Shown here: positions 1 through 10,117 of the stretch, piece by piece
How positions within the stretch are numbered: position 1 is the first letter of the stretch
Layout of the letters: the number at the start of each line of letters is the position of its first letter
Source: a virus
Virus genome (UHGV): UHGV-1654939
Strand: one strand, 5' to 3'
DNA: 10,117 bases
The notes under the pieces: generated by a model
The model's database searches: none
Seen by the model: only the letters and a program-made list of their open reading frames with translations
What the model was told of the DNA's origin: nothing
Made by a program: the position numbers and the translations under genes

Positions 1-1
1 T

Positions 2-179
2 ACTTTCGTGCTGTCGCGTATAGCAAGGGAAATATCCAGTATTCTCGACGGTATTCCTCTGTCGGTGCAGCGACGTTTTCCTGAGCTGGATAACCGGCAT
101 ATTGATTTCCTGAAACGGGATATCATCAAAGCCATGAACAAAGCAGCCGCGCTGGATGAACTGATACCGGGGTTGCTGA

Positions 180-205
<26 letters not shown>
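2..205 (+). CDS. nu1: Terminase small subunit, C-terminal part (5' end lies outside the window)
   Basis: Open frame entering from the window start (track ORF 8..205). The translation ...DNRHIDFLKRDIIKAMNKAAALDELIPGLLSEYIEQSD matches what I recall of the lambda Nu1 C-terminus. It overlaps the next gene by 26 nt (180-205), as in lambda. Confidence 0.88.
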
Positions 206-3886
<3,681 letters not shown>

Positions 3887-3906
<20 letters not shown>

Positions 3907-5206
3907 TCTCCCGCATATTGCCAGCATGGCCTTTAATGAGCCGCTGATGCTTGAACCCGCCTATGCGCGGGTTTTCTTTTGTGCGCTTGCAGGCCAGCTT
4001 GGGATCAGTCGCCTGACGGATGCGGTGTCCGGCGACAGTCTGACTGCCGGAGAGGCACCCGCGACGCTGGCGTTATCCGGTGATGATGACGGACCACGAC
4101 AGGCCCGCAGTTATCAGGTCATGAACGGCATCGCCGTGCTGCCGGTGTCCGGCACGCTGGTCAGCCGGACGCGGGCGCTGCAGCCGTATTCGGGGATGAC
4201 CGGTTACAACGGCATTATCGCCCGTCTGCAACAGGCTGCCAGCGACCCGATGGTGGACGGCATTCTGCTGGATATGGACACGCCCGGCGGAATGGTGGCA
4301 GGGGCATTTGACTGCGCTGACATCATCGCCCGTGTGCGTGACATAAAACCGGTATGGGCGCTTGCCAACGACATGAACTGCAGTGCAGGTCAGTTGCTTG
4401 CCAGTGCCGCCTCCCGGCGTCTGGTCACGCAGACCGCCCGGACAGGCTCCATCGGCGTCATGATGGCTCACAGTAATTACGGTGCTGCGCTGGAGAAACA
4501 GGGCGTGGAAATCACGCTGATTTACAGCGGCAGCCATAAGGTGGATGGCAACCCCTACAGCCATCTACCGGATGATGTCCGGGAAACACTGCAGTCCCGG
4601 ATGGATGCAACCCGCCGGATGTTTGCACAGAAGGTGTCGGCATATACCGGCCTGTCCGTGCAGGCTGTGCTGGATACCGAGGCTGCAGTGTACAGCGGTC
4701 AGGAGGCCATTGATGCCGGACTGGCTGATGAACTTGTTAACAGTACCGATGCGATCACCGTCATGCGTGATGCACTGGATGCACGTAAATCCCGTCTCTC
4801 AGGAGGGCGAATGACCAAAGAGACTCAATCAACAACTGTTTCAGCCACTGCTTCGCAGGCTGACGTTACTGACGTGGTGCCAGCGACGGAGGGCGAGAAC
4901 GCCAGCGCGGCGCAGCCGGACGTGAACGCGCAGATCACCGCAGCGGTTGCGGCAGAAAACAGCCGCATTATGGGGATCCTCAACTGTGAGGAGGCTCACG
5001 GACGCGAAGAACAGGCCCGCGTGCTGGCAGAAACCCCCGGTATGACCGTGGAAACGGCCCGCCGCATTCTGGCCGCAGCACCACAGAGTGCACAGGCGCG
5101 CAGTGACACTGCGCTGGATCGTCTGATGCAGGGGGCACCGGCACCGCTGGCTGCAGGTAACCCGGCATCTGATGCCGTTAACGATTTGCTGAACACACCA
5201 GTGTAA
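3887..5206 (+). CDS. C: Prohead protease / scaffold-processing protein gpC (S49 SppA-type peptidase), 439 aa
   Basis: Same frame as track ORF 3749..5206, but I place the start at GTG 3887-3889. It is preceded by GAGGAGG (3874-3880) and overlaps the end of B by 20 nt, giving the lambda length of 439 aa. The upstream ATG at 3749 would add 46 codons read across B in another frame. Confidence 0.88.
4601..5206 (+). CDS. nu3: Scaffolding protein Nu3, in-frame internal start within C, 201 aa
   Basis: ATG at 4601-4603 in the C frame, shared stop at 5204-5206. The translation MDATRRMFAQKVSAYTGLSVQAVLDTEAAVYSGQEAIDAGLADELV... matches lambda Nu3. The nested arrangement is established lambda biology. 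Confidence 0.75.
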   Translation: MDATRRMFAQKVSAYTGLSVQAVLDTEAAVYSGQEAIDAGLADELVNSTDAITVMRDALDARKSRLSGGRMTKETQSTTVSATASQADVTDVVPATEGENASAAQPDVNAQITAAVAAENSRIMGILNCEEAHGREEQARVLAETPGMTVETARRILAAAPQSAQARSDTALDRLMQGAPAPLAAGNPASDAVNDLLNTPV

Positions 5207-5215
5207 GGGATGTTT

Positions 5216-5548
5216 ATGACGAGCAAAGAAACCTTTACCCATTACCAGCCGCTGGGCAACAGTGACCCGGCTCATACCGCAACCGCGCCAGGCGGATTGA
5301 GTGCGAAAGCGCCTGCAATGACCCCGCTGATGCTGGACACCTCCAGCCGTAAGCTGGTTGCGTGGGATGGCACCACCGACGGTGCTGCCGTTGGCATTCT
5401 TGCAGTTGCTGCTGACCAGACCAGCACCACGCTGACGTTCTACAAGTCCGGCACGTTCCGTTATGAGGATGTGCTCTGGCCGGAGGCTGCCAGCGACGAG
5501 ACGAAAAAACGGACCGCGTTTGCCGGAACGGCAATCAGCATCGTTTAA
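5216..5548 (+). CDS. D: Head decoration protein gpD, 110 aa
   Basis: Track ORF 5210..5548. I take the second ATG (5216), giving [12 protein letters not shown]... and the lambda length of 110 aa. Confidence 0.94.
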
Positions 5549-5565
5549 CCTGACCCTTCATCACT

Positions 5566-5590
5566 AAAGGCCGCCTGTGCGGCTTTTTTT
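5566..5590 (+). terminator. GC stem-loop followed by a T-tract in the D-E intergenic spacer (terminator-like or RNA-stabilising hairpin)
   Basis: Stem GCCGC (5570-5574) and GCGGC (5579-5583) around loop CTGT, flanked by AAA on the 5' side and TTTTTTT (5584-5590) on the 3' side. A second T-run follows before the E start. Confidence 0.4.
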
Positions 5591-5603
5591 ACGGGATTTT
5601 TTT

Positions 5604-6629
5604 ATGTCGATGTACACAACCGCCCAGCTGCTGGCGGCAAATGAGCAGAAATTTAAGTTTGATCCGCTGTTTCTGCGTCTCTTTTTCCGTGAGAGCTATC
5701 CCTTCACCACGGAAAAAGTCTATCTCTCACAAATTCCGGGACTGGTAAACATGGCGCTGTACGTTTCGCCGATTGTTTCCGGTGAGGTTATCCGTTCCCG
5801 TGGCGGCTCCACCTCTGAATTTACGCCGGGATATGTCAAACCCAAGCATGAGGTGAATCCGCAGATGACCCTGCGTCGCCTGCCGGATGAAGATCCGCAG
5901 AATCTGGCGGACCCGGCTTACCGTCGCCGTCGCATCATCATGCAGAACATGCGTGACGAAGAGCTGGCCATTGCTCAGGTCGAAGAGATGCAGGCAGTTT
6001 CTGCCGTGCTCAAGGGCAAATACACCATGACCGGTGAAGCCTTCGATCCGGTTGAGGTGGATATGGGCCGCAGTGCGGCGAACAACATCACGCAGTCCGG
6101 CGGCACGGAGTGGAGCAAGCGTGACAAGTCCACGTATGACCCGACCGACGATATCGAAGCCTACGCGCTGAACGCCAGCGGTGTGGTGAATATCATCGTG
6201 TTCGATCCGAAAGGCTGGGCGCTGTTCCGTTCCTTCAAAGCCGTCAGGGAGAAGCTGGATACCCGTCGCGGCTCTCATTCCGAACTGGAGACAGCGGTAA
6301 AAGACCTGGGCAAAGCGGTGTCCTATAAGGGGATGTATGGCGATGTGGCCATCGTCGTGTATTCCGGACAGTACGTGGAAAACGGCGTCAAAAAGAACTT
6401 CCTGCCGGACAACACGATGGTGCTGGGGAACACTCAGGCACGCGGTCTGCGCACCTATGGCTGCATTCAGGATGCGGACGCACAGCGCGAAGGCATTAAC
6501 GCCTCTGCCCGTTACCCGAAAAACTGGGTGACCACCGGCGATCCGGCGCGTGAGTTCACCATGATTCAGTCAGCACCGCTGATGCTGCTGGCTGATCCTG
6601 ATGAGTTCGTGTCTGTACAACTGGCGTAA
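5604..6629 (+). CDS. E: Major capsid protein gpE, 341 aa
   Basis: Track ORF 5577..6629. The start is taken at ATG 5604 (MSMYTTAQLLAANEQKF...), giving the lambda length of 341 aa. The longer track start would run through the upstream hairpin. Confidence 0.96.
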   Translation: MSMYTTAQLLAANEQKFKFDPLFLRLFFRESYPFTTEKVYLSQIPGLVNMALYVSPIVSGEVIRSRGGSTSEFTPGYVKPKHEVNPQMTLRRLPDEDPQNLADPAYRRRRIIMQNMRDEELAIAQVEEMQAVSAVLKGKYTMTGEAFDPVEVDMGRSAANNITQSGGTEWSKRDKSTYDPTDDIEAYALNASGVVNIIVFDPKGWALFRSFKAVREKLDTRRGSHSELETAVKDLGKAVSYKGMYGDVAIVVYSGQYVENGVKKNFLPDNTMVLGNTQARGLRTYGCIQDADAQREGINASARYPKNWVTTGDPAREFTMIQSAPLMLLADPDEFVSVQLA

Positions 6630-6631
6630 TC

Positions 6632-6653
6632 ATGGCCCTTCGGGGCCATTTTC
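6632..6653 (+). terminator. Perfect 7-bp hairpin with a TTCG tetraloop in the E-FI spacer (terminator-like or mRNA-stabilising)
   Basis: ATGGCCC (6632-6638), loop TTCG (6639-6642), GGGCCAT (6643-6649), then TTTTCTCTCT. It sits immediately after the E stop (6627-6629) and before the FI ribosome-binding site GGAGG. Confidence 0.4.
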
Positions 6654-6670
6654 TCTCTGTGGAGGAGTTC

Positions 6671-7069
6671 ATGACGAAAGATGAACTGATTGCCCGTCTT
6701 CAGGAGCTGGGTGAGCAACTGAACCGCGATGTCAGTTTGACGGGAACGAAAGAAGAACTGGCGCTTCGTGTGGCAGAGCTGGAAGAGGAGCTTGATGACA
6801 CGGATGAAACTGCCGGTCAGGACACCCCTCTCAGCCGGGAAAATGTGCTGACCGGGCATGAAAATGAGGTGGTATCAGCGCAGCCGGATACCGTGATTCA
6901 GGATACGGCTGAACTGGTCACGGTCGTGGCACTGGTGACGCTGCATACTGATGCACTTCACGCCACGCGGGATGAACCTGTGGCATTTGTGCTGCCGGGA
7001 ACGGCGTTTCGTGTCTCTGCCGGTGTGGCAGCCGAAATGACAGAACGTGGCCTGGCCAGAATGCAATAA
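6671..7069 (+). CDS. FI: DNA-packaging / head assembly protein gpFI, 132 aa
   Basis: Track ORF 6632..7069. The start is taken at ATG 6671, which is preceded by GGAGGAG (6661-6667). MTKDELIARLQELGEQLNRD... matches lambda FI. Confidence 0.92.
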   Translation: MTKDELIARLQELGEQLNRDVSLTGTKEELALRVAELEEELDDTDETAGQDTPLSRENVLTGHENEVVSAQPDTVIQDTAELVTVVALVTLHTDALHATRDEPVAFVLPGTAFRVSAGVAAEMTERGLARMQ

Positions 7070-7080
7070 CGGGAGGCGCT

Positions 7081-7434
7081 GTGGCTGATTTCGATAACCT
7101 GTTCGATGCTGCCATTGCTCGCGCTGATGAAACGATACGCGGGTACATGGGAACGTCAGCCACCATGACATCCGGTGAGCAGTCCGGTGCTGTGATACGT
7201 GGTGTTTTTGATGACCCTGAAAATATCAGCTATGCCGGACAGGGCGTGCGCGTTGAAGGCTCCAGCCCGTCCCTGTTTGTCCGGACTGATGATGTGCGGC
7301 AGCTGCGGCGTGGAGACACGCTGACCATCGGTGAGGAAAACTTCTGGATAGACCGGATTTCGCCGGATGATGGCGGAAGTTGTCATCTCTGGCTTGGACG
7401 GGGCGTACCGCCTGCCGTTAACCGTCGCCGCTGA
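7081..7434 (+). CDS. FII: Head completion / head-tail connector protein gpFII, 117 aa
   Basis: Track ORF 7081..7434. The start codon is GTG, preceded by GGGAGG. MADFDNLFDAAIARADETIRGYMG... and the 117-aa length are as in lambda FII. Confidence 0.92.
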   Translation: MADFDNLFDAAIARADETIRGYMGTSATMTSGEQSGAVIRGVFDDPENISYAGQGVRVEGSSPSLFVRTDDVRQLRRGDTLTIGEENFWIDRISPDDGGSCHLWLGRGVPPAVNRRR

Positions 7435-7445
7435 AAGGGGGATGT

Positions 7446-7808
7446 ATGGCCATAAAAGGTCTTGAGCAGGCCGTTGAAAACCTCAGCCGTATCAGCAGAA
7501 CGGCGGTGCCCGGTGCCGCCGCAATGGCCATTAACCGCGTTGCTTCATCCGCGATATCGCAGTCGGTGGTACAGGTTGCCCGTGAGACAAAGGTACGCCG
7601 GAAACTGGTAAAGGAAAGGGCCAGGCTGAAAAGGGCCACGGTCAAAAATCCGCAGGCCAGAATCAAGGTTAACCGGGGGGATTTGCCCGTAATAAAGCTG
7701 GGTAACGCGCGGGTTGTCCTGTCCCGACGCAGGCGTCGTAAAAAGGGGCAGCGTTCAGCCCTGAAAGGTGGCGGCAGTGTGCTTGTGGTGGGTAGAGTCG
7801 ACTCGTAA
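7446..7808 (+). pseudogene. Z: Truncated tail-completion gene Z: about 116 lambda-like codons, then 4 unrelated codons (RVDS) and a stop
   Basis: Track ORF 7446..7808 is 120 aa, against 192 aa for lambda gpZ as I recall it. The start is 11 nt after the FII stop, as in lambda. MAIKGLEQAVENLSRIS... is Z-like up to ...GGGSVLVVG (through nt 7793), after which the frame ends at TAA 7806-7808. Confidence 0.8.
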
Positions 7809-7833
7809 GGTTAGGGATTCAGATTATGCGAAC

Positions 7834-8916
7834 ATGCAAACGCTGATTAACAGCGACACAAAACGTATATACGTTCGCTTTGTTGTTAATGGAAACTGGA
7901 CAGCGTGGAGTCAGGTTGTTGTTTCCGGATGGAATCAGGATATAACTGTCAGGTCGTTAACCACATCTAGTCCGGTAAAATCTGGCGGAGGGCGAATTGA
8001 TGTCCTTGGAAGCACGTCAGACTATAGCAAAATGGATTGCTTTGTACGTGGGTTTGATAGCACCGGTAATTCTCTCGCGTGGGCGTTGGGTTCATCAGCC
8101 GGCGTAAGTAAGATGCTGTCGCTAAAAAATTTCTTTAGCGGAGCTGAGATACTGTTAAATGGTAATGACGGCGCGGTTCAACTCAAAACAGGTGCTGTTA
8201 ACGGGGCTACAGCGCAGGCGCTCACTATCAACAGGAATGAGGTTAACTCAACCGTTGATTTAACCCTTACAAAGCAATCAGGGACTGGTAATCGTTTTGT
8301 TTTACAGAACTCAGGTAATGCAGAACTACCGTTTTCTGTCAGGGTGTGGGGTTCCAGTACTCGACAAAACGTTTTTGAGGTTGGCACGTCTGCTGCGTAT
8401 CTGTTTTATGCGCAAAAAACGTCAGCAGGCCAGTTGTTTGATGTAAATGGCGCTATTAATTGCACAACGCTGAATCAGTCATCAGACCGCGACCTTAAAG
8501 ACGATATTCTCGTTATCAGCGACGCGACGAAAGCAATCCGTAAAATGAACGGATACACCTACACGCTCAGGGAAAACGGGATGCCTTATGCTGGCGTTAT
8601 TGCACAGGAAGTAATGGAGGCGATACCAGAAGCTGTGGGATCGTTTACTCATTACGGTGAAGAGTTGCAAGGCCCGACCGTTGACGGCAACGAGCTACGC
8701 GAAGAAACGCGCTATCTTAATGTTGACTACGCCGCCGTGACGGGTTTACTTGTTCAGGTCGCCCGTGAAACAGATGATCGCGTTACCGCGCTGGAAGAGG
8801 AAAACACAACGCTACGTCAAAATCTGGCAACAGCAGACACCCGGATCAGCACTCTGGAAAATCAGGTAAGCGAACTGGTTGCACTTGTCCGGCAGTTAAC
8901 AGGAAGCGAACATTGA
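7834..8916 (+). CDS. Tail fibre C-terminal fragment: distal receptor-binding region plus intramolecular chaperone (peptidase S74-like) domain. It lacks an N-terminal tail-attachment part and may be a pseudogene.
   Basis: Track ORF 7768..8916. The first 22 codons are Z sequence read in another frame, so I take the first in-frame ATG after the junction (7834). The motif SSDRDLKDDI begins at 8479, followed by GYTYTL and a C-terminal heptad-like segment (TALEEENTTLRQNLATADTRISTLENQVSELVALV). This is the characteristic layout of self-cleaving chaperone domains of phage fibres and tailspikes. There is no convincing ribosome-binding site. Confidence 0.6.
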   Translation: MQTLINSDTKRIYVRFVVNGNWTAWSQVVVSGWNQDITVRSLTTSSPVKSGGGRIDVLGSTSDYSKMDCFVRGFDSTGNSLAWALGSSAGVSKMLSLKNFFSGAEILLNGNDGAVQLKTGAVNGATAQALTINRNEVNSTVDLTLTKQSGTGNRFVLQNSGNAELPFSVRVWGSSTRQNVFEVGTSAAYLFYAQKTSAGQLFDVNGAINCTTLNQSSDRDLKDDILVISDATKAIRKMNGYTYTLRENGMPYAGVIAQEVMEAIPEAVGSFTHYGEELQGPTVDGNELREETRYLNVDYAAVTGLLVQVARETDDRVTALEEENTTLRQNLATADTRISTLENQVSELVALVRQLTGSEH

Positions 8917-9099
8917 TATCCTTCAAGCTCTGAAGGAGGCTGTTCCCGGTACGTTCAGACTGTTGTTGAGCTGGAAATCGCAACGGAGGAAGAGAAAGCG
9001 TTACTGGCCGCATGGAAAAAGTATCGGGTGTTGCTGAACCGTGTTGATACATCAACTGCACCGGATATTGAGTGGCCTGCTGTCCCTGTTATGGAGTAA
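8917..9099 (+). pseudogene. tfa: Tail fibre assembly protein (tfa-type) 3' remnant, with no start codon of its own
   Basis: Directly after the fibre TGA (8914-8916) and in the same frame, the translation runs ...[44 protein letters not shown] to TAA 9097-9099. I recognise this ending as the conserved C-terminus of lambda-type Tfa proteins. Exactly where the tfa homology begins is not determined. Confidence 0.5.
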
Positions 9100-9443
9100 T
9101 CGTTTTGTGATATGCCGCAGACACGTCGTATGCAGGAACGTGCTGCGGCTGGCTGGTGAACTTTCAATAGTGCGAGTATTGAATGATTTCCAGCTGTTAT
9201 CGATTTTATGTGTTTTTTGCATGAGGGGATTTCCACCACCTCCCACCGACCATCTAAGACTTTATGCCACTGTCCCTAGGACTGCTATGTACTAGGAGCG
9301 GATGTTAAACTCAGACTCGTTTCAGCTACATTGCGTTTTGAATAATATTTCATCATAATAACTCTTTGAAAAATGTGATCTTTTCATTTATAACACTGAT
9401 GACTTGCTTATCTCATTGGGATATCGGAGGAGAATACTTAACT

Positions 9444-9572
9444 ATGACAAGCCCGATTATTATGACACTGGCTATATTATATAGATTGATATTAAAATGT
9501 AGGATTAGGTTCTTGCCAAGGTGTCAAGATTTACAGATAGGTTTAAAACCATATAAATATGTTTTACGGTGA
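9444..9572 (+). CDS. Hypothetical small hydrophobic peptide, 42 aa (possible single-helix membrane peptide)
   Basis: ATG 9444 is preceded by GGAGGAG (9426-9432). The peptide MTSPIIMTLAILYRLILKCRIRFLPRCQDLQIGLKPYKYVLR has a hydrophobic N-half and a basic C-half. It is the 3' part of track ORF 9366..9572. No homology is known to me, and it could be chance in AT-rich DNA. Confidence 0.2.
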   Translation: MTSPIIMTLAILYRLILKCRIRFLPRCQDLQIGLKPYKYVLR

Positions 9573-9612
9573 GATACAATACATATTGTAAGGCATAAAC
9601 GCTTGGTAAAAT
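9531..9612 (+). promoter_or_regulatory. Candidate sigma70-type promoter elements upstream of the 9637 ORF
   Basis: TTACAG (9531-9536) lies 17 nt before TAAATA (9554-9559). TTGTAA (9586-9591) lies 15 nt before TAAAAT (9607-9612). These are hexamer matches by eye in AT-rich DNA, where such matches are frequent. Confidence 0.2.
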
Positions 9613-9636
9613 TTTAATTATTGGAAGAAGCTAATC

Positions 9637-10117
9637 ATGGAACCCATATCAATTACAGTGGCAACTTATGTAGCAACTAAACTTATTGATCAATTCATCT
9701 CTCAAGAAGGATATGGTTGTATTAAGAAAGCATTATTCCCCCAAAAAAGATACGTGGATAGATTATATCAACTAATTGAAGAGACGGCAATTGAGTTTGA
9801 AGAAACATATCCAGTAGAAAGTGGAGCAATACCATTTTATCATTCCGAACCATTGTTTGAGATGTTGAATGAGCACATCTTGTTTAAAGAGTTCCCTGAC
9901 AAAGAGATATTATTAGACAAGTTCAAAGAATATCCAAGTATCACTCCCCCAACTCAACAACAACTCAGCCTTTTTTATGAGATGTTATCATTAAAAATCA
10001 ATAATTGTTCGAAGTTAAAAAAGCTACATATCGAAGAAACGTATAAAGAAAAAATATTCGATATTAATGAAGAGCTCATTCAAGTTAAACTTATTTTACG
10101 GTCTATAGATGAGAAAC
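9637..10117 (+). CDS. Hypothetical protein, N-terminal 160 aa or more (continues beyond the window); unassigned
   Basis: I translated this by hand from ATG 9637 and found no stop codon through nt 10117: MEPISITVATYVATKLIDQFISQEGYGCIKKALFPQKRYVDRLYQLIEETAIEFEETYPVESGAIPFYHSEPLFEMLNEHILFKEFPDKEILLDKFKEYPSITPPTQQQLSLFYEMLSLKINNCSKLKKLHIEETYKEKIFDINEELIQVKLILRSIDEK. It is absent from the ORF track, presumably because it has no stop in the window. A weak Shine-Dalgarno-like GGAAGAAG sits at 9623-9630. Codon usage fits the local ~32% GC. Confidence 0.6.
   Translation, partial: MEPISITVATYVATKLIDQFISQEGYGCIKKALFPQKRYVDRLYQLIEETAIEFEETYPVESGAIPFYHSEPLFEMLNEHILFKEFPDKEILLDKFKEYPSITPPTQQQLSLFYEMLSLKINNCSKLKKLHIEETYKEKIFDINEELIQVKLILRSIDEK

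Follow-up and report, generated by a model that had tools for sequence, protein, structure and literature searches.

The window, a 10,117-nucleotide stretch of the UHGV virus genome UHGV-1654939 that we analysed at its full length, carries part of a lambda-like prophage and ends inside a defence gene. Near its left end (180–2105) lies the gene for the large terminase (TerL), a 641-amino-acid protein of the GpA type (Pfam GpA_ATPase and GpA_nuclease), which belongs to a lambda-like head module. The prophage is tail-less. Around 7446–7810 its gpZ gene, whose product matches only positions 1–115 of the 190 positions of Pfam Minor_tail_Z, is fused to the final ~1.1 kb of a tail-fibre gene with an S74 (endosialidase-chaperone) domain; the junction is at about 7792–7794. 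In the related prophage of strain AB66 (L001), about 14 kb separate the two points that are joined here, and this interval holds the 3′ end of Z, the genes U, V, G, T, H, M, L, K, I, J and lom, and the 5′ part of stf. Strain ES2 has an identical junction between gpZ and the tail fibre, in a DLP12-like prophage at argU. The arrangement of the window as a whole is contiguous in none of 5426 complete E. coli genomes, and for this reason its wider context was extrapolated from relatives. No tRNA gene was found anywhere in the window.

Downstream of the tail-fibre gene, the plus strand at 8965–9099 retains the last 44 codons of a tail fibre assembly gene, tfa. This segment aligns with L001 19866–20000, which is annotated as “tail fiber assembly protein, partial, missing N-terminus,” and window 8954–9148 is 87.7% identical to lambda 22412–22606, the 3′ end of lambda tfa. 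An earlier note on this DNA had called the segment a tfa remnant; the annotated partial gene in the relative bears this out, and the remnant marks the left side of the cargo region. A sub-threshold match to the Rfam family IS009 (8856–9056, plus strand; 81.5 bits against a gathering score of 117; E = 2e-18), extending over the full length of the model, reaches from the end of the tail-fibre gene into the tfa remnant.

The remnant is followed by a conserved element of ~100 nt (9115–9216) that forms a common homology boundary of lambdoid prophages. It occurs at 5329 places in 3202 of the 5426 complete E. coli genomes, and most matches stop at 9214–9216. A hairpin (GCCGCAG..CTGCGGC, 9114–9149) is associated with the element, whose predicted RNA fold has a free energy of −43.8 kcal/mol (z = −2.1). 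In both lambda and strain JS316, the 35-nt stretch corresponding to 9114–9148, with the hairpin, borders inserted cargo on both sides; between the two copies lambda carries ea47, and JS316 carries a GIY-YIG gene and a type II restriction-modification pair. Positions 9115–9148 therefore mark a second cargo slot, which is empty in the window. The last lambdoid stretch, resembling the lambda b region, runs from 9217 to 9302 with a G+C content of 0.52, and 9114–9302 is 89.4% identical to lambda 24161–24348. Beyond it lies the left junction of the AT-rich cassette described below. A separate 89-nt copy of the post-tfa element (corresponding to 9123–9211, 86.5% identical) lies between the host chromosomal genes ykgJ and ecpE, with no prophage gene nearby (L007 26391–26479; L001 37972–38060). 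It could be what is left of a former prophage end, or else a small element that is mobile or structured.

Base composition changes sharply at this junction. The G+C content is 0.570 over positions 1–7794, 0.478 in the tail-fibre remnant (7795–8916), about 0.44–0.52 over 8917–9302, and 0.314 over 9303–10117. When counted in 60-nt windows, positions 1–9100 have a mean of 33.5 G+C and a minimum of 21, with no window at 20 or below, whereas positions 9303–10117 have a mean of 18.8 and a maximum of 26. Windows of 815 nt within 1–9100 never fall below 0.459. The drop is real and lies well outside the variation seen elsewhere in the window. Codon usage changes with it: the open reading frame (ORF) that begins at 9637 has a GC3 of 0.29, compared with 0.55–0.67 in the head genes, none of its 18 leucine codons is CTG (69% in the head genes), and none of its 9 proline codons is CCG (66% in the head genes). 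Thus, the fall to about one-third G+C and the shift in codon usage claimed in the earlier note both hold, and its hand counts of 19 G+C in 9361–9420 and 20 in 9661–9720 are exact. Its starting point for the shift, 9100, was ~200 nt too far to the left. A two-segment likelihood fit places the change point at 9302–9336, and 9100–9302 is therefore still ordinary lambdoid DNA.

The low-GC stretch contains one convincing ORF, which starts with an ATG at 9637 on the plus strand and stays open for 160 codons until it runs off the end of the window at 10117. Five complete E. coli chromosomes share the DNA from 9100 to 10117 with 100% identity, and in some fifty others the identity is 99% or higher. 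The gene is labelled “avs2: AVAST type 2 anti-phage system protein Avs2” in all of these matching genomes, by PGAP in the five identical ones. In AB66 the gene has 4455 nt and encodes 1484 amino acids, of which the first 160 are identical to those in the window. The 160 residues also match chain A of PDB 9O4E, the cryo-EM structure of EcAvs2 (Evans et al., Nat Commun 2026, PMC13601566), at 159 positions. The one exception, L82 versus F82, is the sole difference that separates the window residues from 9O4E and from three other alleles.

The full-length relative from AB66 aligns with 9O4E chain A from end to end (1–1484; 3432 bits) with a handful of substitutions. It scores 1690 bits against the NCBIfam equivalog NF041813, “Avs2” (cut-off 1000), over residues 178–1476 and 1751 bits against the PADLOC Avs2 model PDLC02164; Pfam nSTAND6 matches weakly at residues 325–388. 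The window fragment by itself matches the PADLOC model with E = 7e-6 and gives no match in NCBIfam, because the NF041813 model begins at residue 178. The Walker A motif GIGKS, with K348, is present in both the full-length relative and 9O4E; it lies beyond the end of the window and is thus taken from relatives. The C-terminal TPR and β-rich sensor, likewise outside the window, are present in the near-identical structure 9O4E. Judged by these identities and family scores, the low-GC ORF is the 5′ end of avs2 (codons 1–160 of 1484, encoding the N-terminal effector domain), an anti-phage STAND NTPase that has already been named and characterised, and the window gene is an allele of EcAvs2 with no substantive difference. 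The object is thus already known, as EcAvs2 in the literature and as avs2 in PGAP annotation. The earlier note had proposed foreign accessory or anti-phage cargo at this position, which the family scores and the near-identity to 9O4E support. It had also stated that the cargo contains no recognisable phage gene. That statement stands, but the cargo is not anonymous, since its ORF is a structurally solved defence gene.

We found the avs2 cassette in 87 of the 5426 complete E. coli genomes, always beside tfa. Adjacency was determined by searching with one sequence that reached from the tfa remnant into avs2, and exactly 87 genomes covered 80% or more of it. Neither the 50,697 phage records nor the 72,556 plasmids that we searched contained the cassette. 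Its flanks are far more widespread, the left one being present in about 3200 and the right one in about 3500 of the same 5426 genomes, and other prophages have other genes between them. After the position equivalent to about 9302, lambda carries ea31 and ea59, ESY002 carries a SMODS nucleotidyltransferase and a SLATT protein, and JS316 carries a hypothetical gene; the post-tfa element is followed by a DinI-like gene in EDL933 and by an integrase in NT1W22. Comparison of this locus among related prophages, which the earlier note had set as a test of whether the cargo is variable, thus revealed variable cargo, not conserved core sequence.

The slot is homologous in position to the b region of lambda, the non-essential interval between tfa and att that contains ea47, ea31, and ea59. 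The lambda segments matching window 8954–9148 and 9114–9302 flank ea47, and ea31 and ea59 stand where avs2 stands in the window. The two differ in genes, orientation, and composition: the lambda cargo lies on the minus strand, in the direction of pL, whereas avs2 points the same way as the late operon. ea59 and ea31 are commonly listed as b-region genes without an assigned role. In PADLOC, ea59 matches PtuA/PDC-M01A (611–667 bits; PtuA 611) and ea31 matches PDC-M01B (375 bits), with the pair located at 24509–26973 of NC_001416 (L003); therefore, the homologous slot in lambda holds a Septu-like ATPase and HNH pair. ea47 had no PADLOC match. The principle, fixed flanks enclosing interchangeable defence systems, is that of the temperate-element defence hotspot (2022, cited in PMC13601566; PMC13586616). 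However, the slot described here belongs to another phage family than in that published case and occupies another position, after tfa and before attR in lambdoid prophages. Our literature search found no paper on the lambdoid post-tfa slot as a defence hotspot.

The relatives define the limits of the cassette and its place within the prophage. It measures 4.9 kb, has a G+C content of 0.34, and contains avs2 as its only gene. On the left, homology to lambda and ESY002 ends at 9302–9306, with that of ESY002 reaching 9306 before it breaks; on the right, homology with other prophages restarts 103–145 nt past the avs2 stop codon. We also examined the cassette ends for signs of transposition or integration in the form of terminal repeats, direct or inverted, and obtained just short matches at chance level. 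In strain CE0011b the prophage integrase abuts a tRNA-Thr gene (thrW), and the late genes extend to the right as far as stf, tfa, and avs2. In four relatives (L001, L007, L008, and L009) attR, a 56–63-nt repeat of the 3′ end of the tRNA-Thr gene, lies ~385 nt past the avs2 stop codon, and avs2 is therefore the last gene inside the prophage. By this gene order, the position of avs2 is equivalent to the lambda b region, after the tail fibre and tfa and before attR, with the att arm in the window's own genome extrapolated from the relatives. Beyond attR at thrW (L001 25376–25422 onward; L008 19438 onward), some strains carry further elements stacked in tandem, including a partial integrase, IS elements, and the MobQ and replication genes of an integrated plasmid-like element, and thrW is therefore a multi-element integration site.

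We considered three other explanations of the low-GC DNA. It might be the edge of a separate island, or host DNA, abutting the end of the prophage at about 9302. In favour of this, the compositional break is abrupt; AB66 has a partial integrase (plus strand), IS elements, and island-like genes after avs2, and plasmid- and island-like genes follow avs2 in strain H8. Nevertheless, we consider this explanation very unlikely. In the four relatives named above the tRNA-Thr repeat lies downstream of avs2, not upstream, with the islands beyond attR; the 300 nt from avs2 to attR are a conserved phage att arm, shared by about 3500 genomes and by phage 21-like phages; and all 87 copies of avs2 adjoin tfa, with none found elsewhere. 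Another explanation, that the cargo is a moron for lysogenic conversion or virulence, such as a secreted effector of the kind found in O157 prophages, draws on EDL933, in which the type III secretion effector genes espW and espM2 lie in the same region, upstream of the tfa remnant. The unambiguous assignment to the Avs2 family, the near-identity to 9O4E, and the published anti-phage activity of EcAvs2 refute this reading, to which we give next to no credence.

It is also conceivable that the window's avs2 is a decaying, non-functional pseudogene remnant, like the tfa and tail remnants that neighbour it. The prophage around it is degraded, as seen in the fusion of gpZ to the tail fibre at 7792 and in the reduction of tfa to 44 codons, and homologues of avs2 split by frameshifts do occur, in Photobacterium leiognathi (L011; 189 + 1296 aa) and in a metagenome contig (L012; 133 + 1339 aa). 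Against this, the 160 visible codons are intact and identical to functional alleles, and in the five genomes that are 100% identical across 8965–10117, the full 1484-aa gene is present in all five. We therefore judge decay to be improbable. A full-length avs2 in the window's own genome is an extrapolation from these relatives, as the window stops at codon 160. Taken together, it is highly probable that 9303–10117 is the left end of a single-gene avs2 cassette of ~4.9 kb, comprising the leader and the first 160 codons, which sits in a slot like the lambda b region in a lambda-like prophage at thrW and whose product acts by terminase sensing.

The cassette begins with an AT-rich 5′ flank of 334 nt (9303–9636, plus strand; G+C 0.305). 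It contains a promoter-like block, consisting of TTTACA (9530–9535), a spacing of 16 nt, TATAAA (9552–9557), and then GTTTTACGGTGAGAT (9561–9575), and a Shine-Dalgarno-like GGAAGAA (9623–9629) ahead of the ATG at 9637. The block at 9522–9575 is 80–83% identical to sequences upstream of the avs2 homologues in P. leiognathi and the metagenome contig, whereas the remainder of the leader could not be aligned with the leaders of those two homologues. A generic promoter scan reported no plus-strand σ70 match in 9303–9636, because its rule demands a T at position 6 of the −10 element. A non-coding block that moves with its gene across genera fits a promoter and leader belonging to avs2 itself, and we infer that avs2 would be driven by this conserved promoter. 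Additional transcription by read-through from the late operon is also plausible, because avs2 is co-directional with that operon and no intrinsic terminator was predicted between tfa and avs2.

An ORF within the leader (9366–9572; 68 aa, hydrophobic, with an internal ATG at 9445) was examined as a possible partner or toxin and rejected, as its peptide is not conserved. It had no tblastn match upstream of either homologue, and its conservation is limited to the nucleotide block at its 3′ end, which fits a promoter and not a peptide. An Rfam search over 8500–10117 gave nothing above chance in the low-GC part (STnc150 at 21.8 bits against a threshold of 60; a snoRNA at E = 0.43).

The 160 codons in the window encode the N-terminal effector domain. 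In an alignment of 14 homologues, the invariant residues of this domain are mostly aromatic, aliphatic, or proline. A profile search found the domain in 318 clusters (at 50% identity), always N-terminal at residues 1–160, and fused to nSTAND3, to NB-ARC with TPR, to PIN-TPR-GreABC, and to other scaffolds. These fusions identify it as a modular N-terminal effector family attached to varied defence scaffolds, in agreement with PMC13601566. An AF2 model of the 160 residues is all-helical with a pLDDT of 67 (below 50 for residues 1–35). Foldseek searches of the PDB with this model gave no usable match (best E 0.7, TM <0.31), and a Pfam search with the 160-aa fragment matched no family. The effector is apparently non-enzymatic, and killing would most likely be triggered by oligomerisation without catalysis, for example through membrane or aggregate formation. 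The two distant Avs2 homologues that share this N-terminal domain, at L011 556–5030 (P. leiognathi) and L012 8001–12480 (the metagenome contig), are AT-rich (0.35) relative to their flanks and lie outside prophages, one of them beside an integrase island; each is broken by a frameshift or stop near the boundary between effector and core, into the two parts whose lengths are given above.

Published work on EcAvs2 supplies the mechanism in which this domain would act. EcAvs2 protects against T7-like, T1-like, and Dhillonvirus phages, among them PhiV-1, T7, ZL19, and Pal009; a broad spectrum of large terminases can activate it via their ATPase domain, and it is toxic when co-expressed with many of 37 phage terminases (PMC13601566). 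The TPR domain, the C-terminal β-rich sensor, and a helical extension together make up the pocket in which each EcAvs2 protomer binds one terminase, and a third, “bridging” ATP is located at the interface (PMC13601566). EcAvs2 then assembles through its STAND ATPase into a flat C4 tetramer that brings the N-termini together, and the K348A mutation abolishes defence (PMC13601566). The same study described the effector as uncharacterised, unseen in the cryo-EM map, and without conserved polar residues, and noted that the first 15 residues are similar to amyloid signalling motifs (PMC13601566).

If the mechanism published for EcAvs2 is applied to the window's allele, the large terminase of an invading phage would be bound at its ATPase domain by the C-terminal TPR and β-rich sensor, together with a bridging ATP, and the STAND ATPase, with its Walker A lysine K348, would then drive formation of the flat C4 tetramer. 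The tetramer would gather four N-terminal effector domains, and the cell would die before phage maturation (abortive infection). The prophage would presumably benefit by shutting out competing phages. KpAvs2 and most other Avs2 proteins share the sensor and STAND core and also mediate terminase-triggered abortive infection (Bechon et al. 2024, PMC11564622). KpAvs2 differs in carrying two accessory genes and, at its N-terminus, a nuclease of the Mrr type; most Avs2 proteins likewise have an Mrr-like effector (PMC11564622). In contrast, the type found in the window has a rarer, apparently non-enzymatic helical N-terminal domain and a cassette without any accessory gene.

This mechanism places a terminase sensor in the same prophage as a terminase. 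avs2 lies ~7.5 kb downstream of the window's own TerL gene and is co-directional with it, with no predicted terminator between the two. In CE0011b the cassette accompanies a different head module, which has a protease-capsid fusion and a 700-aa GpA-type TerL (L010 32585–34687). The two GpA-type TerLs that accompany avs2 are just 25% identical. Since the cassette is found with two head modules, the terminase sensor therefore coexists with at least two GpA terminases. The main text of PMC13601566 does not mention lambda, and a figure legend in PMC11564622 indicates that the KpAvs2 operon confers some defence against lambda-vir; going by that legend, lambda-like phages therefore do not obviously escape the Avs2 family. 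One tentative explanation, which we put at somewhat below even, is that EcAvs2 fails to sense GpA-family terminases, which would allow lambdoid prophages to use it selectively against competitors with other terminase types, or else that self-recognition makes induction suicidal and would favour decay into defective prophages of the kind seen in the window.

The gene in the window had already been characterised, and what these data add is context. An anonymous AT-rich prophage tail now has a named defence gene, and the post-tfa region of lambdoid prophages at thrW emerges as a place where defence genes are exchanged at two cargo junctions (9115–9148 and about 9302). They also show where the model protein EcAvs2 is naturally encoded: in a prophage, alone in its cassette, and behind a conserved leader of its own. 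In the literature that we examined, we did not find its position as the last gene before attR in thrW lambdoid prophages, in a cassette of one gene, described. The presence of EcAvs2 alongside GpA-type terminases makes the question of self-tolerance directly testable. Finally, the window pinpoints the 160 codons that encode the killing effector, which would represent a new non-enzymatic death module.
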